From: Deltaproteobacteria bacterium
GTDB lineage: Bacteria > Myxococcota_A > UBA9042 > PHBI01
Direction: 5' to 3'
Assembly (NCBI GenBank): GCA_020632715.1
Contig: JACKFA010000004.1
Span: forward strand, 758,190 to 822,189
DNA length: 64,000 nucleotides
The position numbers were made by a program, and so were the translations under genes. The notes beneath the pieces are model-generated. The model was not told the origin of the DNA. It made no database searches and worked only from the letters and a program-made list of their open reading frames with translations. Within the stretch, counting starts at the first letter, position 1; every line of letters starts with the position of its first letter. Below are positions 6,761 through 54,851 of the stretch, in pieces.

Positions 6761-6814
6761 GGGCTAGCAGCCCGGCGCCCGCTCGGCAAGCCAGAACGCC
6801 ACGCCGGCGCCGTC

Positions 6815-7804
6815 TCAGCCGGCGCTGGGCGCCTCGCCGCGGTAGAGGCGCGCGATCCGCTCGCGGTGGAGGCGCAGCGGGCTGTCGAAGCGCGAGAGGC
6901 GCGTCCCGCGGAGGTCGGGGCGCGGGTCGGCGAGGCGCTCGATCATCTTGCGGTCGAGCGCCACCTCGCGCGCCGTGAGCGCCCGGAAGAGCGGCGTGAT
7001 CAGGCGGTCGAGGCCGCGCGGGGCGCGCGTCGAGTAGGGGAACACGAAGAGCTCGGTCGTGTGGGCGTCGACCGGCACGAAGAACACGGCGAGGTGCAGG
7101 CGGTCCCCCTTCGGGGCCCCCGTCGCCGCGTCCTCCCACCACTGCGCGTACACGATGTGGACGGGCGAGAAGTAGACCGTCCAGTCGTCGACGAAGGCGT
7201 CGCCGCCCGCGATGCCGAAGAGGCGCTCGACGAGCCGCGGCACGGGCTTCTGCGGGCCGCGGTTCCACACGCGGAGCCAGTCGTCGCCGCTCTCGACCTT
7301 GGTCTCGAGGTCTCCGAGGCTGTCCGGACGGTAGCCGAAGAGGGCGTGCGTCGACGGCGTGTGCTCGACCTCGCAGAAGTTGTCGACCACCGTCTCGAGC
7401 GGCGCGCGCACGCGATCCGTGAGGACGCCCGCCGCGAAGAAGCCAGCGCGGTCGAGCTCGGGGAGCGGGGCGTCGGCGCCCGCCGCCTTCACCCAGATCG
7501 CGCCGTGGCGCTCGGCGACGTCCCAGCGCCGCGCGTCGACCCTCATCCGCGGCGTGCTCGCGCTCTCGCCGACGCCGTCCGGGCCGAAGCGGTAGCCGTG
7601 GTAGGGGCAGACGAGGCGCTCGCCGTCGACCTTGCCGCAGGAGAGGCGCATGCGGCGGTGCGGGCACTCGTCGGTGAGCGCGCCGAGCGCGCCTTGTGCA
7701 GTGCGAAAGAGGACGATCTCCTCGTCCATCAAGGTCACGGAGCGCGGTCGGTACCCCAGATCTCGCGATCGCAAAACGGGGTGCCAGTGGTCGCGCTCAG
7801 CCAC
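6815..7804 (-). CDS. Rieske [2Fe-2S] non-heme iron oxygenase, PaO/Tic55/CMO-like short form.
   Basis: Rieske motif CPHRRMRLSCGKVDGERLVCPYHGYRF (CxH...CxxH) plus mononuclear-iron motif EVEHTPSTH (E/DxxHxxxxH). Start overlaps the stop of the upstream FMO gene by 8 nt. Confidence 0.85.
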   Translation of the reverse strand: MAERDHWHPVLRSRDLGYRPRSVTLMDEEIVLFRTAQGALGALTDECPHRRMRLSCGKVDGERLVCPYHGYRFGPDGVGESASTPRMRVDARRWDVAERHGAIWVKAAGADAPLPELDRAGFFAAGVLTDRVRAPLETVVDNFCEVEHTPSTHALFGYRPDSLGDLETKVESGDDWLRVWNRGPQKPVPRLVERLFGIAGGDAFVDDWTVYFSPVHIVYAQWWEDAATGAPKGDRLHLAVFFVPVDAHTTELFVFPYSTRAPRGLDRLITPLFRALTAREVALDRKMIERLADPRPDLRGTRLSRFDSPLRLHRERIARLYRGEAPSAG

Positions 7805-8990
7805 GCGCCGCCTCGCGCGTGGCGCCGACCGTCGGCTTCGTCGGCTTCTGGTCGCCGGCGATGGCGGCGGCGATGCGCTCGGCCTCGAGGGCGCTCTCGC
7901 GGAGGGCGCCGGTGGTCGGGTTCCGGAAGCCGCAGAAGTAGAGGCCGGGGATCTGCGCCTCCGCGCCGTGCACCGTGGGGTAGCCGCGGTCGTCGACCAC
8001 GCGCTCCGCGCCGTCGAGGAAGCGGTCGAGCGCCGCGCGGTAGCCGGTCGCGAGCACGATGGCGTCGAAGCGCGCGCTCTGCCCGTCGACGAAGCGCACG
8101 ACGTCGCCGTCGACGCGCTCGACCCCCTTCGTGACGCGGATCGCGCCCTTCTTGACGAGGCCGATGGTGCCGACGTCGATGAGCGGGACGCGGCCCTCGG
8201 CGGTGAGGATCTCCATGGGCCCGCGCGCCGGGCGCTCGAAGCCGAAGCGCCGGAGGTCGCCCATGACGAGCCGCACGAGCGGCGCCGACAGGCGGTCCTG
8301 CGTCTTCGGGGAGAAGCGCGAGAGCAGGATGGCCGTGCGCTGGATGGGCATGCCGAGGACGTCGCGCGGGACGACGTGCACGGGGCTCCGCACGACGATC
8401 GCCGGGCGCGCGCCGTGCTCGTGGAGGTCGACCGCGATCTCGCCGCCGGAGTTGCCGACGCCGACGACCAGCACGTCCTTGCCGGCGAAGCGGGCGCCGC
8501 TGCCGTAGGTCGCCGAGTGGACGACCTCGCCCGGGAACGCGTCGAGCCCGGGGAAGTCGGGGCGCTTCGGGACGCCGTTGTAGCCCGTCGCGACGACGAG
8601 GTGCCGCGCGAGGTAGCCGGGGCCGGGGTCGACGTCGACGCGCCAGCGCTCGCCGTCGCGGCGGGCGCGCGTGACGGTCGCGCCGAGGCGCGGCGCGATC
8701 CCGAAGCGCCGCGCGTAGCTCTCGAGGTACTCGACCACCTGCGCGCGCGAGGGATAGGTGGGCCACGCCTTCGGCATCGGGAAGCGCGGCAGCGACGACC
8801 ACGGCCGCGCCGTGTGGAGGTGGAGCCGCTCGTAGTGGGTGCGCCAGGCGGAGCCGACGGCGGTGGCGCGGTCGAGGACGACGTGGTCCACGCCGGCCTC
8901 GCCGAGGCAGGCGGCCACGGCGAGCCCGCTCGGGCCGGCGCCGATGACGAGCGTGTCGACGGTGACGGCGTCGCCCGCGGCGTCCGTCAC
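7797..8990 (-). CDS. Flavin-containing monooxygenase (FMO/YUCCA-like), 397 aa, GTG start.
   Basis: FAD motif GAGPSG, NADPH motif GVGNSG, and FMO-identifying motif FPGEVVHSATY (FxGxxxHxxxY). The real part is the C-terminal 397 aa of track ORF 7797..10799. The GTG start overlaps the TGA of the upstream methyltransferase (GTGA). Confidence 0.85.
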   Translation of the reverse strand: MTDAAGDAVTVDTLVIGAGPSGLAVAACLGEAGVDHVVLDRATAVGSAWRTHYERLHLHTARPWSSLPRFPMPKAWPTYPSRAQVVEYLESYARRFGIAPRLGATVTRARRDGERWRVDVDPGPGYLARHLVVATGYNGVPKRPDFPGLDAFPGEVVHSATYGSGARFAGKDVLVVGVGNSGGEIAVDLHEHGARPAIVVRSPVHVVPRDVLGMPIQRTAILLSRFSPKTQDRLSAPLVRLVMGDLRRFGFERPARGPMEILTAEGRVPLIDVGTIGLVKKGAIRVTKGVERVDGDVVRFVDGQSARFDAIVLATGYRAALDRFLDGAERVVDDRGYPTVHGAEAQIPGLYFCGFRNPTTGALRESALEAERIAAAIAGDQKPTKPTVGATREAARG

Positions 8991-17790: not shown

Positions 17791-19359
17791 TGGCAGGTGC
17801 TCCCGCCGTCGACCGAGTCGCCGACGTCCACCGCGCGCGCCTCGAAGCGCAAGCCCGCGCTGTAGCCGTCGCCGATGCGGTAGTCGAGGGCGCAGTCGGC
17901 GCCCGGGATGAAGCCGCTCTCCGAGCAGTCGCCGTCGTTGCAGCAGCCCACGATCGTCACGTTCGACACGAGGCAGGGGAGGGTGCCCGTGCTGAACTGG
18001 ATCCAGTCCTTCCCGCCGTTGCCCTCGGCGTCCTGGTCGATGTGGCCGATGAGGCCGAGGATCGCGTGGAGCGCGGTGGGGCAGCGCGGGAGGAGCGCGG
18101 AGGTGTCGATGCGATAGAGCACCGAGGCCGGGATCACGCCGCCGAGGCGCCCGTCGATGAGCTTCCGCAGCGCGCCGCCCGAGGTGCGGGCGATGGTCGC
18201 CTCGACGTGGGCGCGGGCGACGCGGAGGACGCCGAGCGGGCCGCCCGGGAGCGGCAGGGCGGCGGTCGTCAGGTAGAGGATGGGCGGCGTCGGCTGGGCG
18301 TTGCTCGAGGCGGCCGCGTAGATGCCGTTCGCGACGTCGTCCGTGTCGTCGATGAGCACGTCGGGGACGCACTGATCGTCGAAGGAGCCCGCGTCGCTCC
18401 AGAGCACCGGGTTCGCGTTCGAGTCCTGCCGCCAGGGGACCGGCGCGTCGCTCGGGGGGCAGGCCGGGTCGACGCCGAAGTGGAAGGAGACGCTGATGTC
18501 GGGGTCGTTCCCGAGGTCCTGCACGGCGCCGAGGGTGATGAGCTGGATGATGGTGCCGTCGTCGAGGTAGCCGTCGAGGAGGTTGTTCAGCTGCTGGTTG
18601 ATGAGCGCGTTGGAGGCGAGGCGGTTGTCGCGGCCGGTGTAGAGGTTGTGGTCGCCGTCGGCGTCGTCGAGGTCGAAGCCGACGTTGCCGTCGAGGGAGA
18701 GCTTCGTCAGGACGACCGTGGGCTCGCGCTCGCAGCTGCCGGGGCGGCAGCCGTCGAGGGCGCAGGCGTTGCCGTCGTCGCAGGCCTCGTCGGGGTCGAC
18801 GACGTGGTCGCCGCAATAGCCCGCGACGACGGTGTCCGGGCTCGTGTCCGCGGGGGTGACGGTGTCGAGGGTGTCGGCGACGACGGTGTCGGTGGGGGTG
18901 ACGGTGTCCGTGGTGTCGGCGACGACGGTGTCCGTGGGGGTGACGGTGTCGGTGGTGTCCGTGGTGTCGGCGACGACGGTGTCCGTCCGGGACGACGGTG
19001 TCGACCGGCACGACGGTGTCCTCGACGACGACGGTGTCCTCGATGACGACGGTGTCGACCGGCGGGAGCGTGTCCTCCGGCGGGGCCGTGTCCTCCGGCG
19101 GGAGCGTGTCCCCGGGCGGCAGCGTGTCGACGGTGGGCAACGTGTCGACGGTGGGCAGCGTGTCCTCCGGCGCGCCCGTGTCGACCACGGCGGTGTCGGC
19201 CTCGGCGTCGCCCTCGACGTCCTCGACGCCGCCGAGGTCCGGGCTCCCCTTCGTGTCGGTGGCCCCGATCGCGCCGTTCTCGCCGTCGTCGAGGCAGCCG
19301 GCCAGCATCGCCGCGCACGCCAAGGCCGTGACCCATCTCCAGCTCATCTCGTCCCCCAT
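17787..19359 (-). pseudogene. Lipoprotein with DTLPTV / DTVV tandem-repeat linker and a C-terminal Cys-containing globular domain. The reading frame is interrupted by a 1-nt shift inside the repeat (~18990).
   Basis: Track ORF 17212..19359 begins with a lipoprotein signal (MSWRWVTALACAAMLAGC) and D/T/V/P repeats, then becomes H/R junk. The coherent continuation (…CGDHVVDPDEACDDGNAC…) is in the frame of track ORF 17787..18524. Confidence 0.5.
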
Positions 19360-35146: not shown

Positions 35147-35653
35147 ATGTTCGAGTACGACGACGAGCCCCGCTACGATGTCCTCATCACGCCGGGGCGC
35201 GACGGCTTCCGCGTCGCGGACCAGGGCGTCCGCGCGCTGCTCTCCTACTTCACGATGACGCAGCTGCTCGCCCTCCGCGAGCAGGTCGACGGCGACGGCT
35301 GGACCGAGCTCTTCCTCGATCCGGATCAGTTCGCGCACCACCTCTTCCGCGACGGCCCGGCGCCACCGGGCGGGGCGCCCCTCATCGAGGCGATCCTGCG
35401 CGTCGGCGCCGCCGCGACCGGCCAGCCCTACGGCGCCCAGCTCGGCCGCGACATCCACGTCTACCTCGAGCTCGTGGGCGCGCGCTGGCCGGACGTGGCG
35501 AAGGACTTCCTCGACAAGCTCCAGCAGATCGTCTGGATGCGCCCGCAGACGAGCGTGAAGCCGCACGCGCCGCCGCCGCCCCACGCCCCCGGCCGCGCCG
35601 CCGCCGTGCGCCGCGAGGCCCGCGCCGCCGCCCAGGTCGTCGACCGCGACTGA
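35147..35653 (+). CDS. Hypothetical cytoplasmic protein, 168 aa.
   Basis: 3' part of track ORF 34136..35653 from an internal ATG (MFEYDDEPRYDVLITPG). Balanced composition. Confidence 0.5.
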   Translation: MFEYDDEPRYDVLITPGRDGFRVADQGVRALLSYFTMTQLLALREQVDGDGWTELFLDPDQFAHHLFRDGPAPPGGAPLIEAILRVGAAATGQPYGAQLGRDIHVYLELVGARWPDVAKDFLDKLQQIVWMRPQTSVKPHAPPPPHAPGRAAAVRREARAAAQVVDRD

Positions 35654-39173: not shown

Positions 39174-42100
39174 ATGCGCGGTTTCCTGCTCCGGCGTGCC
39201 CTCCTGGGCGCGCTCCTCCTGTCGTTCGTCGGGTGCGGTGACGGCACGACCGGCGCCGACACCGTCGAGCCGACCGACACGGCGACCCCGGACTCGGCCG
39301 ACACCGCGGACACCGCGGACACGGCCGACACCGCGGACACAGCGGACACGGCCGACACCGCGGACACGGCGGACACGGCCGACACGGCGGACACGGCGGA
39401 CACGGCGGACACGGCGGACACCGCCGACACGGCGGACACCGCCGACACGACCGACACCGCCGACACAGCCGACACAGCCGACTCCGACTCGGCTGACACC
39501 GCCGACACCGCGGACACCGGCCCCGACGTCGTCCTCGCCGACACCACGGCCCCGACGGTCACGCTCATCGCGCCCACCGAAGGCGCCACCCTCACCGGCG
39601 GCCGCGTCGTCGTCACGGGCGTCGTCTCCGACCCGCAGGGCGCCGATGATGGCGCCCCGACCGGCGTCGTCGCCCTCACCGTCGCCGGCGTCGCCGTCAC
39701 GCCGGCCCCCGATGGCGCCTTCGGCCTCACCCTCACGAGCGTCGTCCCCGGCCCGCTCGAGCTCCTCGTCCGCGCCACGGACGGGGCCGGCAACGTCGGC
39801 GAAGCCAGCGTCTCCGTCACGGTCGCCCGCGAGCCGCTCGCCCTCTCCGCCTCGCCCGCGTCGCTCTCCCTCGACGACCTCGGCCAGAGCGCCGTCCTCG
39901 ACGTCGCCCGTCACTACGCCGGCGGCGCCGCCGACCTCCCCGACCCGACCTCGCTCACGTTCGAGAGCTCGGCCCCGGCCGTCGCGGCCGTCACCCCAGG
40001 CGGCGTCGTCACCGCGCTCGCCCCTGGCACCGCGACCGTCACCGCGAGTGACGGCGCCCTCTCCGTCGCCGTCCCGGTCACCGTGGCCGCCGACACCACG
40101 GCGCCCGCGCCGCCCCTCGTCGAGACCTGGGTCCCCGTCACGAGCCTCGACACCCAGGTCTGGATGGGCCGCGCCGAGCCCGGCGCCTCCCTCGCCGTCA
40201 GCGGCCTCGCCGCGCCGCTCACCGGGGCCGTCGGCGCCGACGGCCGCTTCCTCCTCACGCTCCCGCTCCCGCCGCGATCCGCGCTCACCCTCGGCATCAC
40301 CGCCACCGACGCCGCCGGCAACACCTCCGAGCCCGTCAGCTACCCGATCGTCCAGGACCCGGAGGCCGTCGACGCAGGCGCCCTCCACCTCGCCGACGGC
40401 GACAACCAACGCGGCGTCGCGGGCCAGGCCCTCATGCGCCCCCTCCGCGTCCGCGCCACCACTCCCGCGGGGGACGCCCTCGCCGGCGCGACCGTCACCT
40501 TCACCCTCGTCGGCGGCGACGCCGCGCTGGCCGCCTCGGCCGCCGACCACGGCGCCGACACCCTCGTCGCCACCGCCGACGCCGCCGGCTATGCGCGCGC
40601 CTGGCTCATCCCGGGCGCGCCCGGCGATCTGCGCGTCCACGCCGCGCTCACCGGCGACGCGGGGCTCCCGGTCGTCTTCCGCGCGGTGGCCGCGTCCCCC
40701 CTCGTCGACGGCCGCACGCGCGTCTCCGGCGTCGTCCTCGACGACGCCATGGGCGCCGTCCAGGCCCCCGTCTCGCTCCTCCTCGACGGCGTGACCTACT
40801 TCCCGGACGGCGGCGTCACGAGCGACGACCACGGCCGCTTCACGATCACCTGGCCCGTGGCCGACCCGTCGGCGGTCCCCGCGACAGGCTTCCTCCTCGT
40901 CGACGGCTACAACGCGCTGAACGGCACCTTCGGCCGGCTCACCTTCGAGGTCGACGTCGTCCCGGGCATCGACAACGCCGTCGTGCGCCCGTTCTTCGTG
41001 CCCGTCATCCCCGACGGCGTCGCGCCCGCCCTCGACGGCGACGGCCGCCTCAGCGCGGACCTCGTGCTCACCCACGCGCTCGGCCCCGGCCGCGAGCCCG
41101 CGCGGGCCATCCTCGCCGCTGGCACGAAGATCACCTTCCCGGACGGGATCCCCGCCGCCCGCCGCCGCCTCTCCCTCCTCACGATCCCCATGGGCCGCGC
41201 CCCGATGCCGCTCACCGACGGCCTCTACTCGCGCACGATCCTCTCGCTCCAGCCCGGCGGCGCTCTCTACGACCCGCCCGTCGTCCTCGTCGTGCCGAAC
41301 CTCGACGGCGCAGCCCCCGGCGAGCAGGTCCCGCAGCTCATCTTCGACCACGACACGCACCGCTACGTCGTGAACGGCACGGCCACCGTCTCGGCCGACG
41401 GCCGCACGCTGCGCACCGACCCCGGGAGCGGGATCCGCGTCGGCGCGTGGCACGCCATCCCGCCGAGCCGCCCCGCCGAGCGCGGCGTCGCCCAGGTCAC
41501 GGTGGACGCGGGCGACGAGGGCGCCGACGACTGCGTCTGCGTGAGCGCCAACGGCACGACGGCGCCGTGCGCGCCGTGCTCCTCGACCACCGTCGCGTCC
41601 GCCCCGGGGCTCCCGCGCGCGCCCGGCGTCCCGACCTGCGCGACGACCGACGTCTCCGTGCCCGCAGACGGCGGCCCCCAGAGCGTCACCGCGTCGTGCG
41701 AGCGCAAGCGTTGCCGGGTCGACATCGACTACGTCGCGACCGGCGGCGTCGTGGTGCGGCGGGAGACCGCGCTCACCGCGCGCGTCGGGCAGGTCATCGG
41801 CGTCGGCGCGTCCGCGACGATCCCCGGCGTCGCCGAGACCGCGACGTGGCGCGTCGTTCGCGTCGGCGGCGCGGGCGCCGAGCCGATCGCCACGAGCCCC
41901 GCCACGGGTCCGCGCACCGGCTTCATCCCGACCGTGGCGGGCACCTACGAGGTCAGCGTCTCCGCCGCGGTCTGCGTCGGAGCCAGCGCCACGATCGAGG
42001 TCCTCGGCGACTGCTGTACGGAGGGGCTCATCACGGCGTGCGGCGCGGGTCTGAGGACGCTCCCGAACGGCGACGAGGTCGTGACCGCGCCCGCCAGGAT

Positions 42101-45100
42101 CGGCGCCGGCGGGCCGCTCTACCTCGAGGCGGCTCGCGAGGTGACGTGCATGCACTCCCTGGGCCGGGTGACGGGCGCCGGGATCGTCGCGATCAGCGCC
42201 CCTGGCGCGAGACGGGTCCTCGTCCGCGCGCTCGCGGCCTACGAGATCGAGGGCAGCACGGGCGCCCTGGCGATGCCGCTCCCGCCGATCCTCGCCGGCC
42301 GGAGCCGGGAGATGACGAGCCTCGGCACGAGCGCGCCGATCGTCGGGCGCGACGAGGTGCGCTTCACCGAGCCGACCTGGCGCTTCGCGCTCCGCCTGCC
42401 CGGCGGCGAGCGCGTCGTCTACCAGCCGGCGGTCTACCACGCAGGCCCGAGCGGCTTCTTCGGCGACCGCTTCGTCCGCGAGGGGGCGCCGCTCAGCGCC
42501 GCCGCGACGGGGCCCGTCCGCGTCCTCCGGTGGGAGGTCCGCGACGACGGGATCGGAACGCTCGAGACGACGCTCCAGGTGCGCCTCGGCGCGCTCGCGG
42601 ACGGGCTGACGTTCGACCTCGACGGGCGCCTCGGCAGCGCCGGCCTCTTCCTGTCGGTCCCCGAGCAGCGCCTCCCGGACAAGGCGCCCCCGAGCCGTGG
42701 CTGGCCCGATCCGTCGCCCTCGGACCCGCCGGGCGTCGTCTACTTCGTGAAGCTCGAGGGCGACGTCGAGAACCCGACCTGGTTCTTCGACGAGGAGGTC
42801 CCGCCCGCGCGCGTCATCCGGCTCAGGTCGATGATCGACCTCGGGCCGACCTTCCCGAGCCGCTGCGGGCCGATGACCCCGTTCGCCGCGAGCTGCTCGG
42901 GCACCATGGAGCTCCTGCCGTTGAAGCTCCGCGCCGCGTGCCCCTTGACCGTGATGAGCCTGTCGGCGCCGACCTGCCCGCGCCCGAACGAGGTGGGCGA
43001 CTGGGCCGTCGGGGAGGTCGCGCTCCGCTACGAGGGCGGCCGCGCCACGCTCGACGGGCGCGCCGTGGCGAGGACCGACGATCTCGAGCTCGTCCGCCGC
43101 GAGCTCATGCTGACGGCACCGATCGGGCTCAGCGGCGTCCTCGAGCGCCGCGGCGGGGTCCTCTCGCTCGGCGCCGAGCTCCGAGGGGTCCCGGTCAAGG
43201 TCAACAACGACCTCCACCTCCAGGGCGGGATCAGCGCGTTCTCCTATCGCTCCGAGCCCGTCGCCGCCTCGCTCAGGATCTCGTCGTCCGAGGCGCCGCT
43301 CGGCGCCCAGTTCGAGCGGGACCTCGACGGCTACCAGGCGTCGCTCTGCCTCCCGAACGGCACCACGCGCCCCGTGTGCGCGAACCCGTACGCCGACGAC
43401 GCGCGCAAGGCGCCCGTCAGCGCGGCGGGGACCGTCGAGATCCAGCCCGGCGACGCCGACCCGACGCCGGGCGGCGGCGTCTCCATCACCGTCGACCCGC
43501 CCGCGGACGACGACGAGGACGACCCGATCGAGCTCGGCGACGGGGAGTGCATGGACTACCCCGACGAGTCGCGCTGCCTCGCGTACGGCCTCGCCGGGCC
43601 GCGGACGGCCATCGTCCAGGACGCCCCCGCCGGGACCTACAAGCCACCGGCGACGGGCCCGCTCTCGACCGTCACGGTCGCGCCCGCGCACCCGGCCCCC
43701 GACGCGAGCGCCGCGACCGTCGACGCCGCCGCGGACGACGTCGGCGGCTACCTCGTCACCGTGGACCCGCCTCCGGGCGCGATCGTCGTCGACCTCGGCT
43801 TCCGCGCGGGCGCGTTCGGGCCGGTCGTCACCACGGTCCCCGGCGACGCGGCCGGCTCGGTTCGTTTCACGCCGACCCTCGAGCGCCTCGCGGCGGTCCC
43901 CCAGACGTCCGACCAGAACGGCACCGCGCGCGCGAGCGTCCAGCCGTGCGCGACGTTCGTGCGCGCCGGCGGCGGCACCCCGTCCGTGACCACCTGCGGC
44001 CCGTTCCGCGAGGTGAAGGCGCCCCGCGGCGCCGCCCCGAGCCCCCGCTACCACACCGTCGAGCGCGGCCCCACCGGTCGCGTCGAGGCCGCCGCGACGG
44101 TGCCCTCGGGAGACGGCGCGCCGTTCTCGCTCACCGTGCTCGCGCCCGCGACGGGCGTCGTCACCGTCGACGTGCCCGGCGTCGGGCCCGTCGTGGTCGA
44201 CCTGCGCGTCTCGGACGGCGGCGCGAGCGGCGAGGCGACCCTCCGCTACGGCCTCGACGCCGCGGCCGGCCGCCGGATCGACGCCGCCGCGTACGCGCGC
44301 GCCACGTCGCGCCCGCTCGAGGCGCTGTCGCCGCTCTTCGCGCTCGAGACGACCGCCGCGAGCGACGGGAGCCACGGCTACGCCTACGTGCTCCCGGACG
44401 ACCTCCCGACCGGGATCTACGACGAGGGGCAGAACCCCTACGCGACCGGCGACCTCGTGGCGATCATCTCGCCGCCGCCGACGCGGGCGCGGCTCGGCGC
44501 GGCCTGGAGCTATCGCCCGGAGCTCCTCATCGGCGCCCCGACGACGGTGACGCTCCGCGTCGCGGAGGGGCCGCCCGGCGTCGCGGTCGCGGACGGGCTC
44601 GTGACGTGGACGCCGCCCGCGACGTGGCCCGTCGGGCCCGTGACCATCGCGATCGTGGCCCGAACGGCCGGCGGCGCCGAGGCGCGGCAGACGTTCGAGC
44701 TCGCCGTGAGCGCGGCCGAGACGGCGCCGGCCATCGTGCGCCCGGCGCCCGTCCTCGTCGGGGCGACCGACGGCACGGCGTTCCGCGTCGACGGCGCCAC
44801 GGCGGTCACGGCGGCCGTCGTCGGCGGGCCGACGGGCGCGCAGCGCGTCGCGGTCGGCGTCCTCGCGGCGGACCAGGCGCCGAGCCTCCCGGGGGTGATG
44901 CCGCGCTACGTGCTCGACGCGGACGCCATCCGCGTCGCGACGACCGGGCTCGAGGCCCCGCGGATCGAGATCACGGCCGAGAACGACGCAGGCGCGACCA
45001 CGCTGGTCGCCCAGGTGCTCGTCCTCGATCGCGACGGGGACGGGCTCCGCGACGAGTACGAGCGCCTCGTCGGGACCGACCCCGACGCCGCGACCGACCC

Positions 45101-48100
45101 GGACACCGACACCGACGCGGACGGCCTCACCATCGCCGAGGAGCAGGCGCTCAGGACCCGCGACGACCTCCGCGACAGCGACGGCGACGGCCTCGACGAC
45201 CCTGACGAGGCCGCGCTCGGCGCGAGCCCGCGCCTCTCCGACAGCGACGGGGACGGCCTCGACGACGGCGCGGAGGTCCTGACGCACCTCACCCTGCCGG
45301 ACGTCGCGGACAGCGACGGCGACGGCGTCTCCGACGGCGACGAGGTCATCGGCGGCACGGACCCCACGGTCGCCCTCGACGAGGACGACGACCAGGCCCC
45401 GGACGACCTCGAGCGGCTCGTCCTCCACACCGACCCGACGAACCCCGACACCGACGGGGACACGCTCACGGACGGCGCCGAGGTCGAGCTCGGCACGGAC
45501 CCGCTGGTCCCGGACACCGACGGCGACGGGATCCTCGACGCCGACGAGGCCGCGCTCGGGCGCGACGCCACCGTCGCCGAGGAGGAGCCGCCCGCGCTCG
45601 TCGAGCCGGCGCTCCTGACCGGCACCTCGGCCGCGCAGGTGCTGCTCCCCTTCGAGGCGCGCAGCTTCCCGATCACCGTCGCGGTGGATCGCGACGGCGA
45701 CGGCCTCCCCGACGCGTTCGAGGCGCTCTACGGGCTCGACCCCGACGACCCCGCCGACGCGGCGAGCGACACCGACACCGACGGCCTCACGGCGCGCGAG
45801 GAGCTCGGCCTCGGGACCGATCCGACGCTCACCGACACCGACGACGACGGGGTCGACGACGGGCAGGAGCGCGCCGACGGGACCGACCCGAACGACCCGG
45901 ACGACTTCGACGGCGGCGGCGCCGTCGTCTCGCTCGACGTCGCGCCGGCGAGCGCCGTCGCCGTCTACCACGCGTACTTCGGCCCGCGCCGGCTCCAGCT
46001 CGCCGTGGCCGGCGTCAAGGCGGCCGGCACGCGCGTGGACCTGACGTCACCCGCCGTGGGGACGGTCTACAGCGTGGCTCCGGCCGGCGTGGGGGTCTTC
46101 GACGCCGATGGCGCCTTCGTCCCCGCCGCGCCCGCGAGCGACGACCCCGTGGACGCCGTGATCACCGTGACGGCCCGCGGCGCGACGGCCGACGTGCCCG
46201 TGCGGATCGCGCGCTTCACCCCGCGCGACGTCGGCGTGGTCGCGACGCCAGGCGCGGGCGGGCCGATCGCCGCCGTCCCGGGCGCGGACGCCGTCGTGGT
46301 CGCGGTCGGTGGCCAGGTGCAGGTCGTCGACGTCGCCGATCCGGCCACCCCGCGCGCGCTCGCCCTGACGACCGTCACCGCCGCTCCGATCGCGGCGCTC
46401 GAGCCCTTCGGCGACCGCGTGCTCGCCGTCGCCGGGACCGAGCTCGTCTCGCTCGCGGTGGATCCGGCGGGCGAGGTGACCGTCGCCGCGCGCGCGACGC
46501 TGCCCGCCGCCGGTCGCGGGGTCGCGGCGACCGCGTCGGGTGGCGCGCCGGCGGCGTTCGTCGCGACCGCGAGCGGCGCCGTCGAGGTGCTGCTCGACCG
46601 CGGCGAGGTCGCCGCGACCTGGTTTTCCGGCCAGGACCTCACCGCCGTCGCCGCGGTGCGCGAGCGCGTCGTGGGTGCGACCGCCTCGGGGGCCCTCCGC
46701 GTGCTCCTCCGGGGGCCGAACACCACGGTCGGCGCGGCCACGACGGGCCGCCCGACGACGGCGTTGCTCCACCTCGGCGGCGAGCTCGTCACCAGCTCCC
46801 GCGGGCAGGGGCTCGATCGCGTGCGCCTCGACGTGGTGCCGCCCGCGGTGCTCGCCCAGAGCGACGCGGCGTTCCTCCCGACCGGCCCCGTGGCGCGCTA
46901 CCGCGACGTCGTGCTCGCCGGCGCCGAGGACTTCGGCCAGGCGATGACCTACCACGGGCTCGGCCTCCCGGGCGCGCTGCCGTTCCTCGGCGGCCACGGC
47001 TACGAGCTCGTGCCGGACGGCTCGACCCGGGGCGTCGCGGTGCTGGGGCCGCTCCACGCCGCGGTGGTCGCCGACGAGCTCGACGAGCGCTGGGTCGTCG
47101 TGGCCGAGCACGACCTCTTGACCGACCTCGCCGGCGTCCCGCCGACCGTGGCCCTCCTCGAGCCGCGCCCCGGCGACGCCTTCGACGAGGGCAAGCGCGT
47201 GCTCGTCCGCGCCCGCGCGGTCGACGACGTCGCGGTCGCGCGCGTGACCTTCCTCGTGGACGGGGCGCCCGCGGCGACGCTCACGGCGCCTCCCTGGGAG
47301 GCGCGCGTGCGGCTCCCGGAGGTCGACGCGGACGGCAGCGCGACGATCGCCATCGTCGCGGCCGACGTCGGCGGTAACAGCGCCGAGGCCAGCGTCGTCG
47401 TGGGCGTGCGCGCCGTCACCGACGACACGGACGCGCCGCTCGTCGCGTTCGGCGCCCCGCGCGACGGCCTCACCGTGCCCGCGAGCTCGGTCGTGCCCGT
47501 CCGCGTCAACGTCGTCGACGCCTCGGCCATCCGCGCGGTCGTCCTGAAGGTGGACGGCGTCGAGCGCGCGGTCCTGACGGACGGCCCGCCCTGGGTCGCG
47601 AGCGTGCCGACCCCGGTCCAGCCGGCGTCGGCGACCGGTCGCTACCCGCTCCGCGCCGAGGTGACCGACGTCGCCGGGAACGTCGGCGTCGCCGAGGTCG
47701 AGCTCGTCGACGCGGGCATCGACCTCGTCGGCCTCGGCGTCACCGACATCGCCGCGGGCGACGGGGCGTACGACGGCGCCACCATCCTCATCCGCGGCGG
47801 GACGGTCGCGATCGACGGCGCCCACTCCTTCGCGCGCGTGGTCGTCGGCGCGGGGGGCGTCCTCACGCACCCGCCGACGGGCCTCTCCGGCGCGGAGCCC
47901 GGCCTCGACCTCACCGCCACCGCCATCGTCGTCGAGGAAGGCGGCGCCATCGACGTGAGCGGCAAGGGGTACCGCGGCGGCTGCGGCTCGGGCGGCGCGG
48001 GCTGCCCCGCCGGCACCTCGGGCCGCACGGTCGGCAACGTCGACGGCGTCCCCGGCACCGCGTCCGCCTCGCACGGCGGCGTCGGGCGCTCGACGGCCAC

Positions 48101-48203
48101 CGCGGCGGCTGCGACCTATGGCGAGCTGCTCGCGCCCACGGCGCTCGGCGCGGGCGGCGGCGCCGGCCTCGGCGCGGCGGCGCCGGCGGCGGGCGCGTGC
48201 ACC
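39174..48203 (+). CDS. Giant surface lipoprotein, intact part (>3000 aa). Contains (ADT)n linker, Ig-like/Big_2-like domains, Cys-rich segments, thrombospondin-type-3-like Ca-binding repeats, and the first beta-helix-like ~1 kb repeat. The frame continues, disrupted, to ~51398.
   Basis: MRGFLLRRALLGALLLSFVGC. Frame 0 is coherent to ~48200. Beyond that the sense is recoverable only by frame switching. Confidence 0.75.
39280..39525 (+). repeat. ~27 tandem copies of a 9-bp unit gacacSgcS encoding (ADT)n.
   Basis: Visible directly in the sequence; translates to DTADTADTADT…. Confidence 0.85.
45020..45900 (+). repeat. Thrombospondin type 3-like Ca-binding repeats (DxDxDGxxDxxE) inside the giant lipoprotein.
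   Basis: DRDGDGLRDEYE, DSDGDGLDDPDE, DSDGDGVSDGDE, DTDGDGILDADE and similar. Confidence 0.7.
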
Positions 48204-51200
48204 TCGTCGCGGACACCCTCACGCTCGAGGCGCCGTGCGCGCCAACGGCGAGGACCTCGGCGCCATCGGCGTGAGCGGCCACGGCGGCGCCGGCGGGAGC
48301 GTGCTCCTCGACGTCAGGACGCTCACGGGCAGCGGCGCCATCGACGCGCGCGGCGGCGACGGCGCCAGCGCCTCAGGCGCCGAGCACGGCGGCGGCGGCG
48401 GCCGGATCGCCGTGATCGCGGACGACGCCGCCGGCTACACCGGGCTCGCGAGCGCCGCGGGCGGCGCCGGGAGCGCCACGGCGACGGCGGGGCTCCCGGG
48501 CGGCGCGGGCTCGGTCGCCCTGTCCTTCGGAGGCGCCGCTCCCCTCGTCGTCATCGACGACGGCGGGGCCAGCGACGGCGCCGAGGGCGACGTCCTCGGC
48601 GACGCGGACCTCGCCGGCGCGGACGTCGTCGTGCGCGGATCGGCGCGCGTCCGGCTCGCGCGCCCGCTGTCGGTCGGCTCGCTGCGCCTCGAGGACCAGG
48701 CGCGGCTCGCGCACGGCGCGGCGACCGCGAGCGACGACGCGGTGGGCGTGGACATCACGGTGACCGGCACGCTCACCATCGGGAGCGACGCCGCCATCGA
48801 CGTGAGCGGGCGCGGGTACCGCCAGGGTCGCACCTTCGGGAACAGCGCCCAGAGCGGCCTCATCGCCGGCGGGCGCGGTGGCGCCTCGCACGGCGGGCGC
48901 GGCGGCGGCAGCTCGGGGGTCGTCTTCGGCGACCCGATGGCGCCGGCGACGCTCGGGGCCGGCGGCGGCTCCTTCGGCGGCTCCGACTGCGCGGGCGCCG
49001 GCGGCGGCCGCGTGCGGATCGTCGCGGGGCGCTCGCGCTCGACGGCGCCATCGTCGCGTCCGGCGCGCCGGGCGACGAGACGTGCCAGACCGGCGGCGGC
49101 GCCGGGGCTCCATCGACGTCACCGTCGGGCGCGCTCCTGGGCGATGGCGCGATCGCCGCGAACGGCGGCGCGGGCACCGTCGGGGCCTCGCGTCCGGCGG
49201 CGGCGGCAGGCGCGTCGCGGTCCGCTACGAAGACGCGAGCGCCTTCGACCTCGCGGCCATCAGCGCCTTCGGCGGGGCGGGGGCCGCGAACGGCGGCCCC
49301 GGCACGGTCCTCCTCGCGGAGGCCGGCGAGGCCCCGGTGCTGCGGGTCGCGAGCGGCGGGCTCACGGCCGAGCACGCGGCGCCGCCGCGCGTCCAGCTCG
49401 GCGCCTGGAAGCTCACGACGAGCGGGCTCACGGCGACCTCGTTCAAGGTGCAGGGCTCGAACCTCTGGGTCGGCGACTTCCTCGCCGGGACGCGCGTCGG
49501 GTTCGCGGGCACCGCCGAGACGTGGCTCGTGACGGGGGTCACGGCGGCCACGACGACGGTGCTCGTCGAGGACCGGACGCCCGACCTCTCGGCGGCCGGT
49601 CTCGTCCAGAACGCCGCTGCCATCGGGATCGTCGACCTCGGGGCGGTCCTCGACGTCGACGGCGCCTCGGTCGAGCTCGACGGCGAGTGGCGCCTCCTGG
49701 GCCTTCGCCTCGCGAACGGCGCCCGCCTCGCGCACGCGCCGACCGCGACCACGGTGGGGCGCGCGCCCTCGGGGCTCGAGCTCGCGGTCGAGGGGGACGT
49801 CGACATCGACGCCACCTCGGCGATCGACGTGAGCGGCCGCGGCTTCCTCGACGCGCGCACGCTCGGCGACTCGACCGACGGCAACCTCGCCGCGGGCGAT
49901 CGGACGGGCGGCTCGCACGGCGGCGTCGGCGGCGGCGCCGATCCCGGGATCCCCTACGGCGACGTGACGTTCCCGCTCGCGCCCGGCGCCGGCGGCGGCA
50001 AGGGGCGCTTCGGCGCCGTGGCCGGCGGCTACGGCGGTGGGCGCGTGCGGCTCGCGGCGACCGGCGACATCGCCCTCGACGGGCTCATCGCCGCGAACGG
50101 CGCGGACGCGCCAGTCACGGGCCAGCGCGACGGGGCGGCGGCGCAGGCGGCGCCATCGTCGTCGAGGCGGCGACCTCGCGGGCGCAGGAACGGTCAGCGC
50201 GAGCGGCGGGGCGGGCGGCCGGGTACGGCGGGCGATCCGGGCGGCGGCGGCAGCGGCGGGCGCGTCGCGCTCGTGTACGACGACGCGGCGGGCTTCGATC
50301 TCGACGGCGTCGCGGTCCTCGGGGGCTCGGTGGCGCCGGCGCAGGTGCTGCCGGGACCGTCGCGCGCCTCCCGCGCGGCGACGTCGGCCGGATCGTGGTC
50401 GACGACGGCGGGCTCACCGCCACGCTCGAGACGACGCTGGGCGTCCAGATCGGCCGCGCGCGCGTCACCTCGACGCCGCAGGCCCAGAGCCTCGCGCTGA
50501 ACGGCGGCCAGCCGCGCTTCCACCCGGGCTCGCTCGCGGGGCTCGAGCTCCGCTGCGAGGGCGTCGCGGGCAGCTTCACGGTCGTCGGCAACACGACGAG
50601 CGCGATCCAGACGGACCCGGCCGACGGCGACCTCACCGGCCTCCTCGCGAGCGGCGCCCGGTGCTTCGCGGACCGCGCTCTCGACGCCGTGATCGAGGTC
50701 ACGGGCGGCGCGCGTCTCGCCCTCGACGATCGCTTCACGATCGCGGGGCTCGTCGTCGACGGCGGCGGCGTCGTGACCCACGCCGCGACCGGCGTCGGGA
50801 CGAGCTTCGCCGACGGGCGGCTCGACCTCGTCGTCACGGGGGACGTCGTGGTCGCGGGCGACGGCGCCATCGACGTGAGCGCGCGCGGCTACGCCGGCGG
50901 CGGCGTGGGCGTCGGCGCGAGCGGGAAGACCGTCGGCAACGTCAACGGCTCGGCAGCCGGCGCGGGCGGGTCCCACGCGGGCGTCGGCGGCGGCGCGGGC
51001 GCGGCCGCGGTCTACGGTGACGGCGCGGCCCCCGTCACGGTGGGTGGCGGCGGCGGTCAGGGCGCGGTCGCGGCGGAGTCGGGCGGCCGCGGCGGGGGTG
51101 CCGTGCGCCTGACGGTCGGCGGCGAGCTCGCGCTCGACGGCGCCATCCGCGCGGACGGCGCGGCGGCCCTGGGCGCGGGCGGCGGCGGCGCCGGCGGCTC

Positions 51201-51398
51201 GGTGTGGCTCGCCGCGGCGACGCTCACCGGGCGGGCGTCGTGGCCGCCAACGGGGGCGCGGGCGCAGGCGGCGGCGGCGGGGCTGGGTGCTCCTCGCCGC
51301 GACGACGAGCGGCGCCTGGGCGCCGGCGTCGGTGACGGCGATCGGCGGCGCCGGGTCGGGCGCCGGTGGCGCGGACGGCGTCGCTGCAGGCCCCTGAC
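47700..51398 (+). pseudogene. Four ~1 kb tandem repeats (~345 aa each), beta-helix-like and Gly-rich, with ~10 reading-frame changes across the last three copies. This is the disrupted C-terminus of the giant lipoprotein gene, or a region with sequencing errors.
   Basis: Motif AIDVSG[KR]GY recurs near 47940, 48790, 49830 and 50870. Motifs GGSHGG, GGGRVR, ALDGAI.A.GA and GGAGGSV..L...TLTG recur in each copy. Coherent segments alternate among all three frames (pieces of track ORFs 39114.., 48118.., 48878.., 50037..). Confidence 0.5.
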
Positions 51399-51544
51399 GG
51401 GGCGCTCAGAGGGAGCGACGGCGGGCGCTCTCAGACGCTCCCGGGCCAGATCCGGCGGTCTACCGCTCCGGCCGGCCGTTTGGCGTAGCGAGCGCCGGGT
51501 CGAAGTGATACGGATCCCCCCTCGCGACCGACCGGGAGGCCACG

Positions 51545-52552
51545 ATGCGCCACTTCATCAGCACCGAGGATTGGACCCAGGCCGAGCTGCAGGCCCTGAT
51601 CGACGAGGCGCGCCTCCTCAAGGCGGCCCCGTTCCAGCCGCTGCTCCAGAACAAGTCCATCGCCCTCGTCTTCTTCAACCCCTCGCTCCGCACGCGCAGC
51701 TCCTTCGAGCTCGGCATGTGGCAGCTCGGCGGCCACGCCCTCGTCCTCGAGCCCGGCAAGTCCGCCTGGCCGCTCGAGTTCAAGGAGGGCGTCGTCATGG
51801 ACGGCGAGGCCGAGGAGCACGTCGCCGAGGCCGCCCGCGTGCTCGCCCGCTACTGCGACATCATCGCCGTGCGCGCCTTCCCGAAGTTCGTCGACTGGGG
51901 CTTCGACCGCACAGACCCCGTCATCAAGACCTTCGCGAAGTACTCGACGGTGCCGGTCATCAACATGGAGACCATCACCCACCCGTGCCAGGAGCTCGCC
52001 CACATGATGGCGCTCCAGGAGCGGATGGGCGACGTCCGGAAGAAGAAGTACGTCATGACCTGGACGTACCACCCGAAGGGCCTGAACACGGCCGTCGCCA
52101 ACTCCGGGCTCCTCATCAGCACGAAGTTCGGCATGGACGTGACGCTCCTCTGCCCCGAGGAGGCCTACCACCTCGACGAGCGCTACATGAGCGCCGCCAA
52201 GGCCAACGCCGAGGCGTCGGGCGGCAGCTTCCAGGTGAGCTACGACATCGACGAGGCCTACGCCGGCGCCGACGTCGTCTACGCGAAGAGCTGGGGCGCC
52301 TTGCCGTACTTCGGCAACTGGGACGCCGAGAAGCCGATGCGCGACAAGTACAAGCACTTCATCGTCGACGAGCGGAAGATGGCGCTCACGAACAACGCCA
52401 TCTTCAGCCACTGCCTCCCGTGCCGGCGCAACATCAAGGTCACCGACGCCGTCATCGACTCGCCGCAGTCGATGGTCATCGACGAGGCCGAGAACCGCCT
52501 GCACGCGCAGAAGGCGCTGATGCACCAGCTCGCGACGACCTACCGCGGATGA
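51545..52552 (+). CDS. argF: Ornithine carbamoyltransferase family protein, possibly N-acetylornithine carbamoyltransferase (ArgF').
   Basis: Carbamoyl-phosphate motif SLRTR and HCLP motif. ~335 aa. GGGAGG RBS. Stop overlaps the next start (ATGA). Confidence 0.8.
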   Translation: MRHFISTEDWTQAELQALIDEARLLKAAPFQPLLQNKSIALVFFNPSLRTRSSFELGMWQLGGHALVLEPGKSAWPLEFKEGVVMDGEAEEHVAEAARVLARYCDIIAVRAFPKFVDWGFDRTDPVIKTFAKYSTVPVINMETITHPCQELAHMMALQERMGDVRKKKYVMTWTYHPKGLNTAVANSGLLISTKFGMDVTLLCPEEAYHLDERYMSAAKANAEASGGSFQVSYDIDEAYAGADVVYAKSWGALPYFGNWDAEKPMRDKYKHFIVDERKMALTNNAIFSHCLPCRRNIKVTDAVIDSPQSMVIDEAENRLHAQKALMHQLATTYRG

Positions 52553-53877
52553 ACGAGACGCGGGCCATCATCTCCCAGCTCCTGCGCAACATCGGGAGCT
52601 CGAAGGAGGTCGACCAGTACCTGAAGCAGTTCAGCGAGGTCGAGTCCGCGAAGTTCGCCGTCATCAAGGTCCGCGGCGACATCATCCGCGACGACCTCGA
52701 GTCGCTCTGCTCGGCGCTGACGTTCCTCTACCGCGTCGCGCTCTACCCGATCGTGGTGCACGGATCGGGCGCTCAGCTCGACGCCGCCCTCGCCGCCGAG
52801 GGGGTCCCCCTCGAGACGCGCGACGGGCGCCGCGTCGTCGACGCCGCGACCCTCCGCGTGGCGCGCCGCGTCACGACCGCGCTGAACCACGACCTCGTCG
52901 ACGCCCTCGAGCGCATGGGGACGCGCGCGCGCGCCATCCCGGCCGGCGTCTTCCGCGCCGAGCGCATCGAGGCCCTCGGCTACCACGGGCACGTCACCGG
53001 GGTCGACGCGGACCCCATCCGCGCCGCCATCAAGTCGGGGCACCTGCCGATCCTCTCGTGCGTCGCCGAGAGCGACGAGGGGCAGCTCCTGCTCGTGCAC
53101 GCGCGCACGGCGACGCTCGAGCTCGCGCGCGCCGTCGGCCCCGCGAAGATCATCTTCCTCACCCCCGAGGGCGGCCTCACCGACGACAAGGGGCGCCTCC
53201 TCCGCTCGTTCAACCTCGCCGAGGACTACGAGTGGATGATGACGCAGCCCTTCTTCTCGGACAGCCAGCGGCGGAAGTTCGCCGCGATGAAGGCCCTCCT
53301 CGACGTGCTCCCGCACAGCTCGTCCATCGCGCTCACGGCGCCGGGCCTGCTCCCGCGCGAGCTCTTCACGCACCGCGGCTCCGGCACGCTCATCCGCCGC
53401 GGTGAGAAGGTGCTCTGCCACGAGGGCGGCCTCGGCGACGTCGACGTGCCGCGCCTGAAGGAGCTGCTCGAGCGCGGCTTCGGGCGGCAGCTCGTGCCCG
53501 ACTACTTCGACAAGAAGGGCTTCTACCGGGTCTACGTGACCGAGAGCTACCGCGCGGCAGCCATCCTCACGATGGAGGGCGACCTCCCCTACCTCGACAA
53601 GTTCGTGGTCGACGAGGAGGCGCAGGGGGAGGGGCTCGCGGGGTCGCTCTGGGAGCGGCTCGTCGAGGACAACCCGCGCCTCTTCTGGCGGTCGCGCGTG
53701 GACAACACGAAGATCAACCCGTGGTACTTCTCGCGCGCCGAGGGGAGCCTGCGCGACGGGCGCTGGGTCGTCTTCTGGTATGGGCTCGAGGGGTTCGCGG
53801 CGGTGCAGGACGCCATCGCGAAGGCGCTGGCGATGCCGGCGTCCCTCGAGGCGGCGCCGGCGCCGGAGGCGAGCTGA
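52549..53877 (+). CDS. argB: Acetylglutamate kinase with a C-terminal GNAT domain (long / bifunctional NAGS-K type ArgB).
   Basis: Amino-acid-kinase fold in the N-terminal ~290 aa plus a C-terminal acetyltransferase-like domain. Sense reading lies in the frame of track ORF 48118..53877. Confidence 0.8.
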   Translation: MNETRAIISQLLRNIGSSKEVDQYLKQFSEVESAKFAVIKVRGDIIRDDLESLCSALTFLYRVALYPIVVHGSGAQLDAALAAEGVPLETRDGRRVVDAATLRVARRVTTALNHDLVDALERMGTRARAIPAGVFRAERIEALGYHGHVTGVDADPIRAAIKSGHLPILSCVAESDEGQLLLVHARTATLELARAVGPAKIIFLTPEGGLTDDKGRLLRSFNLAEDYEWMMTQPFFSDSQRRKFAAMKALLDVLPHSSSIALTAPGLLPRELFTHRGSGTLIRRGEKVLCHEGGLGDVDVPRLKELLERGFGRQLVPDYFDKKGFYRVYVTESYRAAAILTMEGDLPYLDKFVVDEEAQGEGLAGSLWERLVEDNPRLFWRSRVDNTKINPWYFSRAEGSLRDGRWVVFWYGLEGFAAVQDAIAKALAMPASLEAAPAPEAS

Positions 53878-54851
53878 TGGGCACGGAGATCGTCGACGTC
53901 GCGGTCATCGGGGCGCGCGGGCACACGGGCGCCGAGCTGCTCAGGCTCCTCGACGGGCACCCGAACTTCCGCATCGCGGCGGTGTCGTCGCGGGCGCTGG
54001 TCGGGAAGGCCGTGCGCGACGAGGTCGCGGGCGGGCTCCGGACGGACGCGGTGTTCGCGGACCTCGAGCCGGCCGACGTCGCCGCCCACGCGGGCGTCGG
54101 GGTGTGGGTGCTGGCGCTCCCGAACGGGCTCGCGGCGCCGTGGGTCGCGGCGATCGACGAGCACGCGCCGGACTCGGTGATCGTGGACCTGTCGGCCGAC
54201 TATCGCTTCGACTCGGCGTGGACCTACGGGCTCACGGAGATGAACCGGAAGTGGCTCCTCGGGGCGCGCCGCGTGGCGAACCCCGGGTGCTACGCGACGG
54301 GGGCGCAGCTCGCGCTGCTGCCGGTGATCGAGCTGCTCGACGGGGCGCCGCACGTGTTCGGCGTGTCGGGCTACAGCGGGGCCGGGACGACGCCGTCGCC
54401 GCGGAACGACCCGGAGCAGCTCCGCGACAACCTCATGCCGTACAGCCTCGTCGGGCACACGCACGAGCAGGAGATCCGCTGGCACCTCGGCCACCGCGTG
54501 TTCTTCATGCCGCACGTGGCGCCGTTCTTCCGCGGGATCACGCTCACGATCTCGATGCCGCTCGGCGAGCCCATCGCGCGCGGCGAGCTCCTCGAGCGGT
54601 ATCGCCAGCGATACCAGGCCGAGCCGCTCGTCGACGTCATCGACGAGGCGCCGCTCGTGCGCGACGCGGCGAACCGGCACGGCGTCACGCTCGGCGGGCT
54701 CACGATCGACCCGGCCGAGCGCCACGCGGTGGTCGTCTCGACGCTCGACAACCTGCTCAAGGGCGCCGCGACGCAGGCGATGCAGAACATGAACCTCGCG
54801 TGCGGCTTCGACGAGCTCGCCGGGATCCGCCAGCACCTCGTCGCGCGCTGA
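53877..54851 (+). CDS. argC: N-acetyl-gamma-glutamyl-phosphate reductase (ArgC), short type.
   Basis: N-terminus MGTEIVDVAVIGARGHTGAELLRLL (NAD-binding). C-terminal dimerisation/catalytic region. Start from the internal Met of track ORF 53721..54851, overlapping the argB stop (TGATG). Confidence 0.85.
   Translation: MGTEIVDVAVIGARGHTGAELLRLLDGHPNFRIAAVSSRALVGKAVRDEVAGGLRTDAVFADLEPADVAAHAGVGVWVLALPNGLAAPWVAAIDEHAPDSVIVDLSADYRFDSAWTYGLTEMNRKWLLGARRVANPGCYATGAQLALLPVIELLDGAPHVFGVSGYSGAGTTPSPRNDPEQLRDNLMPYSLVGHTHEQEIRWHLGHRVFFMPHVAPFFRGITLTISMPLGEPIARGELLERYRQRYQAEPLVDVIDEAPLVRDAANRHGVTLGGLTIDPAERHAVVVSTLDNLLKGAATQAMQNMNLACGFDELAGIRQHLVAR

Follow-up and report, generated by a model that had tools for sequence, protein, structure and literature searches.

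Does a giant surface-lipoprotein gene in a Deltaproteobacteria genome genuinely lose its reading frame toward the 3′ end, or has an intact gene been misread? The gene lies on the + strand of a 64,000-nt stretch of contig JACKFA010000004.1 (assembly GCA_020632715.1, positions 758,190 to 822,189), hereafter the window, and all coordinates are counted from its first letter. An earlier reading made from the letters alone (the sequence-only reading) had described four tandem repeat units with about ten frame disruptions at the 3′ end of a lipoprotein gene of more than 12 kb, and had left the choice between pseudogene decay and indel errors in GGC/GGG runs. At ~75% GC the window contains long open reading frames (ORFs) in every frame, so that ORF lists alone are uninformative, and frame was tracked in three ways: by a plot of GC content at codon positions, by a codon-position Viterbi segmentation with +, − and non-coding states, and by tblastn with intact external homologs. 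The three methods were concordant. From its start at 39174 the gene holds a single frame (position modulo 3 equal to 0) up to 48179, close to the ~48200 given before, after which 12 frame changes between 48179 and 51282 lead through all three frames to a TGA at 51395–51397, one base short of the end at 51398 that had been proposed. We conclude that the gene is probably intact and that the breaks are probably uncorrected homopolymer errors in a stretch devoid of short-read coverage; most probably, the organism itself carries no such disruptions.

The breaks were located by comparing the readings in all three frames with the sister repeats and with the homologs; the exact base within each homopolymer run is a parsimony choice within a tight interval. 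Eleven of the 12 consist of one missing G or C in a homopolymer run and the remaining one of an extra G, a bias toward deletion with a two-sided p of 0.006. Half of the breaks (6/12) are no more than 6 nt away from a G/C run of at least 4 nt, against a background of 9.3% (p = 3.6e-4), which agrees with the earlier remark that frame changes sit at or next to such runs. Indels of one base at homopolymers, strongly biased toward deletion, are the pattern of a homopolymer-indel artifact. Spaced 20–950 nt apart, the breaks form four clusters, one at the Gly-rich end of each repeat unit, with 800–950 nt of clean sequence between clusters. Twelve single-base edits restore one 4,077-aa ORF whose sole stop is the terminal one, with all unit motifs kept and with a C-terminus and stop codon like those of intact homologs. 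As sequenced, the ORF extends from 39174 to 49532 and its final ~450 aa are an out-of-frame, Arg-rich tail; an exact database look-up of this uncorrected ORF returned no record.

The alternation between frames of segments ~800–950 nt long, defined by GC content at third codon positions (GC3), is also what several separate short genes in different frames would produce. However, no stop codons delimit these segments (the frame-1 ORF extends over 48118–53877 and the frame-0 ORF continues to 49532), which places the frame breaks inside one gene. In addition, external homologs align straight over the junctions in tblastn and the junctions lie midway through conserved motifs, leaving an arrangement of separate genes scarcely credible.

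The repeat array itself conforms to what had been claimed for it. In a DNA self-BLAST, a self-comparison like the dot-plot that the sequence-only reading had proposed, the four copies appear at 65–68% identity (E down to 3e-36) with offsets of ~810, 1030–1050, 2080, and 2900 nt, and the AIDVS motifs of the corrected protein are 283, 343, and 350 aa apart, in agreement with the reported number and spacing of the units. The four units also align with one another after frame correction, a second check that it had proposed, and share the motifs AIDVSGRGY, GGSHGG, YGD..P, GGGRVRL, GGGAGGS, and GGGGG, so the repeat similarity holds. An AlphaFold2 model of unit 3 (predicted local distance difference test score 81, predicted template modeling score 0.84) depicts the repeat unit as a right-handed parallel beta-helix, i.e., a stacked-rung beta-solenoid.

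The distribution of the breaks was then compared with an independent short-read assembly. In its upstream part the protein matches, at 100% identity, the partial protein P0125 of “Myxococcales bacterium”, which fills an entire contig (JAGQJQ010000173.1, L006) of GCA_020430565.1, a short-read metagenome-assembled genome (MAG) of the same population. This contig maps to 39569–48095 of the window at 99.77% identity, with 20 mismatches and no gaps. Fourteen of the mismatches are synonymous and six non-synonymous, which indicates purifying selection on the upstream part of the gene. Eighteen of the 20 fall into two patches (5 in 44853–44924 and 13 in 46332–46712), a distribution that looks more like strain-level recombination than like single-nucleotide polymorphisms spread evenly. 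The contig starts right after a 9-nt tandem array near the 5′ end of the gene (39274–39519), which also appears to break short-read assembly. On the other side, the coverage of the MAG resumes with contig JAGQJQ010000958.1 (51452–55117), and three contigs of other short-read assemblies start at 51452 or 51468, with 99.7–100% identity and no gaps. The hole in between contains all 12 breaks, the outermost of which lie 84 nt and 170 nt inside its edges, and the 12 kb of flanks shared with GCA_020430565.1 have no indel differences. In the comparison with related genomes, likewise proposed at the outset, the arrays of homologs are intact and the MAG of the same population lacks the stretch concerned.

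Local GC content reaches 0.88 at 48100–48199 and 0.83–0.87 at 51000–51399, which points to a GC-driven loss of short-read coverage as the origin of the hole. Repeat-induced assembly tangles were rejected as its cause, the longest exact repeat being 22 nt and none reaching 25 nt. A stem-loop after the stop codon, considered as a terminator or as a cause of the contig breaks, was no better than in shuffled sequence (z = 0.12). The closest Myxococcota homologs, P0009 (L007:1-4049) and P0012 (L008:57-5117), are found at the very ends of 156-kb and 140-kb contigs in two other Myxococcota MAGs, which also break off inside or at such arrays, so that beta-helix arrays appear generally hard to assemble. 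Contigs of three MAGs in all end in this way, and metagenome assemblies are thus systematically weak at beta-helix arrays that are rich in Gly and very rich in GC.

If the gene is intact, the 12 frame changes would be non-biological, i.e., residual consensus errors made up of G/C homopolymer under-calls and one over-call. Where usable short reads were lacking, the assembly of the window would have been carried across the stretch by noisier sequence (a long-read bridge or a gap fill, for instance) that was never corrected. We infer this sequencing and assembly history from the positions and types of the breaks, the restored ORF, and the hole. Long-read assemblies of high-GC genomes are reported to carry G/C homopolymer deletions, in runs 4–6 nt long in T. 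thermophilus and M. hassiacum (ARAMIS study, PMC8574707). As here, those errors are single-base G/C deletions in short homopolymers that create false frameshifts in intact genes and persist without short-read correction (PMC8574707); unlike them, the present ones are confined to one 3.36-kb stretch, and their assignment is based on pattern and on comparison with the short-read MAG.

Several points weigh against this explanation. The errors are deduced rather than seen in reads, coverage or assembly metadata. The breaks are regionally concentrated, with 12 in 3.2 kb and one in the remaining window, and homopolymer density in the break region exceeds that elsewhere only modestly, which excludes an error process acting uniformly and makes it necessary to assume a cause specific to the region. 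With a real first frameshift at 48179, all of the downstream sequence could decay, and the same regional pattern would be expected. Both contig ends and real slippage are expected in G-rich sub-regions, so the coincidence of hole and breaks is not fully independent evidence. Finally, the disrupted part has a slightly lower GC3, a difference short of significance (0.965 vs. 0.975 upstream; Fisher p = 0.105).

The foremost alternative is genuine 3′ pseudogenization, in which a frameshift present in the organism near 48179 would have cut the protein short after ~3,000 aa and further G-run slippage deletions would have accumulated in the unselected array. This accounts for the regional pattern as well as assembly error does: the breaks start at one point and run to the gene end, the 9 kb upstream are free of breaks and show purifying selection, slippage occurs naturally at G/C runs, and the marginally lower GC3 goes in the same direction. 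It fits less well with the character of the changes, since the 12 indels are accompanied neither by nonsense codons or multi-base indels nor by a significant loss of codon bias, and the direction of the indels is biased 11:1. No sign of relaxed selection was observed, eroded motifs included; the motifs, the C-terminal stub, and the stop are all preserved. Moreover, every break falls in the stretch that the independent short-read assembly did not build, and none in the 12 kb of shared flanks. Of the two causes left open by the sequence-only reading, indel errors are therefore favored and decay is less favored. We consider decay unlikely; it would mean that this population has an adhesin cut after ~3,000 aa by G-run slippage, with an array that is either a very young decaying remnant or heterogeneous from cell to cell. 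If the frameshifts were genuine after all, the locus would be a natural example of the loss of a C-terminal rod that is otherwise invariably retained in the family.

Breaks at G/C runs in a surface-protein gene, a class that is often phase-varying, also recall regulated recoding or phase variation, in which G-tract slippage at the level of DNA, RNA or the ribosome would switch the C-terminal array. Contingency tracts are usually at least 7 nt long, whereas the tracts here are only 2–6 nt. Instead of one long, length-variable tract toggling the frame there are twelve sites, and translating the array would need all twelve corrections together; we know of no recoding system that needs twelve simultaneous corrections. 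Intact homologs, moreover, do without recoding, and we regard a switch of this kind as very improbable.

The corrected protein begins with the lipoprotein signal MRGFLLRRALLGALLLSFVGC, and its signal peptide followed by a lipobox Cys, recognized by inspection rather than with a dedicated predictor, fits a bacterial lipoprotein, as had been stated from the start. Pfam matches in residues 1–3020 comprise Big_6, Big-like, four TSP3_bac, and two Big_7 domains. The order of parts is a lipid-anchored N-terminus, an acidic linker, Ig-like domains, calcium-binding TSP3 repeats, a propeller-like region, and the four tandem beta-helix units. The four Gly-rich units most likely stack into a long rod, and the architecture is most simply explained by a putative lipid-anchored surface fiber or adhesin.

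The sequence-only reading had called the unit Gly-rich and beta-helix-like without recognizing a named family, and the searches bear this out. Window segments, corrected units, and intact homologs had no Pfam match at E ≤ 1 and no matching NCBIfam model, and a profile search of PDB sequences with the repeat unit gave no match; by these profiles, the unit would not belong to the curated Pfam Beta_helix or pectate-lyase-like families. A database search with unit 4 alone recovered only four distant fragments. The corrected tail, however, has 416 homologs, the best at 35–39% identity, from Myxococcota, Verrucomicrobiota, Planctomycetota, Acidobacteriota, cyanobacteria, and others. This search missed the near-identical P0125, which was found only with the upstream query, likely because Gly-rich proteins filled the candidate list. 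A hidden Markov model (HMM) of the unit matched 2–13 stretches per homolog, and a profile of 26 units, the database search that had been suggested earlier, retrieved 13,324 cluster representatives at E ≤ 1e-3, of which 4,868 still pass at E ≤ 1e-30; many are proteins of 2,000–7,000 aa. Homologous arrays are intact in hundreds of these other proteins.

Judged by its unit-profile match, its tandem arrangement, and its ~35-aa stub, the array is assigned to this large, uncurated family of Gly-rich beta-helix units. Other members (e.g., P0005-P0013, P0131-P0134) share the motifs AIDVSGRGY, GGSHGG, YGD..P, GGGRVRL, GGGAGGS, and GGGGGR, the ~35-aa C-terminal stub, and tandem arrays with 4–22 matched stretches, and some have Big_7, TSP3 or LVIVD upstream. 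The window protein differs in its 35–39% identity to them, its four units, its much longer N-terminal part, and an array that is out of frame as sequenced. Intact homologs end 26–42 aa past the last GGGGGR, often with a terminal Pro; the corrected protein likewise ends with Pro, 36 aa after the last GGGGG. This ending (P0005-P0020; window 51287–51394) may be a conserved cap or sorting feature. A unit family of ~350 aa in giant surface proteins of up to ~7,000 aa that has no Pfam or NCBIfam model is a gap for domain curators.

Known beta-helix adhesins and passengers are much more distant. Compared with pertactin, Pet, Hbp, IcsA, Ag43, and UpaB, the two-partner-secretion (TPS) adhesins HMW1 and EtpA, and the tapirins, sequence identity is 8–15%. 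The window protein has an N-terminal lipid anchor rather than a C-terminal barrel, and discrete units of ~270–350 aa whose rungs are very rich in Gly and which optionally carry a small beta-barrel-like insert, and it has no Pfam beta-helix, autotransporter or TPS match. Pfam found neither a C-terminal beta-barrel translocator nor an N-terminal TPS domain in the protein, and with its end 36 aa past the last unit and its lipoprotein start this argues that it is not an autotransporter or TPS adhesin. The myxobacterial CglD and MtsD are also TSP3-repeat lipoproteins and gave weak local NCBIfam matches over the TSP3 region, but at 52.6 and 19.3 bits against cut-offs of 800 and 400 the window protein is a member of neither, and the likeness is one of repeat type only.

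Table 1. Features of the giant lipoprotein gene, its frame breaks, and its surroundings (window coordinates).
Feature	Position	Strand	Details
Conceptual giant surface-lipoprotein gene	39174..51397	+	4,077 aa after 12 single-base corrections
Signal peptide and lipobox	39174..39236	+	MRGFLLRRALLGALLLSFVG-C, by inspection of the translation
9-nt tandem array	39274..39519	+	ACCGCGGAC, about 26 copies; encodes an acidic (T/A/D)n linker just after the lipobox
Beta-helix unit 1	47700..48402	+	aa 2843-3077, 235 aa; without the N-terminal part of a full unit; breaks after 48179, 48229
Beta-helix unit 2	48403..49207	+	aa 3078-3346, 269 aa; short form without insert; breaks after 49029, 49107, 49185, and extra G at 49125-49127
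Beta-helix unit 3	49208..50260	+	aa 3347-3698, 352 aa; long form with ~85-aa insert; breaks after 50135, 50175, 50220
Beta-helix unit 4	50261..51286	+	aa 3699-4041, 343 aa; long form; breaks after 50325, 51231, 51282
C-terminal stub	51287..51397	+	36 aa, corresponding to the first ~35 positions of a unit; ends ...GVAAGP, then TGA
Missing base, GGG read as GG	after 48179, 48229	+	three-frame reading
Missing base, G5 read as G4	after 49029, 49107, 49185, 50135, 51282	+	three-frame reading
Missing base, G6 read as G5	after 50325	+	three-frame reading
Missing base, G4 read as G3	after 51231	+	three-frame reading
Missing base, CCC read as CC	after 50175, 50220	+	three-frame reading
Extra G	49125-49127	+	three-frame reading
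Stretch absent from GCA_020430565.1	48096..51451		3.36 kb, mean GC 0.801; holds all 12 breaks
Ornithine carbamoyltransferase	51545-52552
AA_kinase/NAT protein	~52548-53877
N-acetyl-gamma-glutamyl-phosphate reductase, argC	53877-54851

From the locus as deposited, a gene caller would report either a pseudogene or a protein of 3,452 aa that ends in a nonsense, Arg-rich tail, accompanied by spurious overlapping ORFs; the 12 positions listed in Table 1 permit the gene model to be repaired or re-checked. The only other break in the window lies near 18988 (18960–19010, − strand) in a second lipoprotein gene (MSWRWVTALACAAMLAGC..., from ~19350 down to 17787). It is of the +1 or −2 type, occurs within a tandem “DTxxP/DTVV” linker repeat, and may be either a further repeat-associated assembly error or a real shift. 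A suspected frameshift at ~35780 proved to be an ordinary boundary between genes, one stopping at 35651 and the next starting at 35823. Among the homologous loci, that of P0002 (L005) was set aside as uninformative on the biology of the family, its genes being split throughout: the beta-helix gene is spread over overlapping ORFs and a molybdopterin oxidoreductase over two (L005:62-2036 and 6512-8705), in a record of the “contig_N” style, which looks like general indel error of that assembly.

Directly downstream of the giant gene is an arginine-biosynthesis cluster (51545–54851). The ornithine carbamoyltransferase and AA_kinase/NAT genes overlap by a few bases, and the first base of argC is also the final base of the stop codon before it. 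Within this cluster, a contig of GCA_020430565.1 (L001:1244-1348, window 52695–52806) contains a run of N, a scaffold gap 7 nt shorter than the real sequence, owing to which the AA_kinase/NAT gene is called truncated there.

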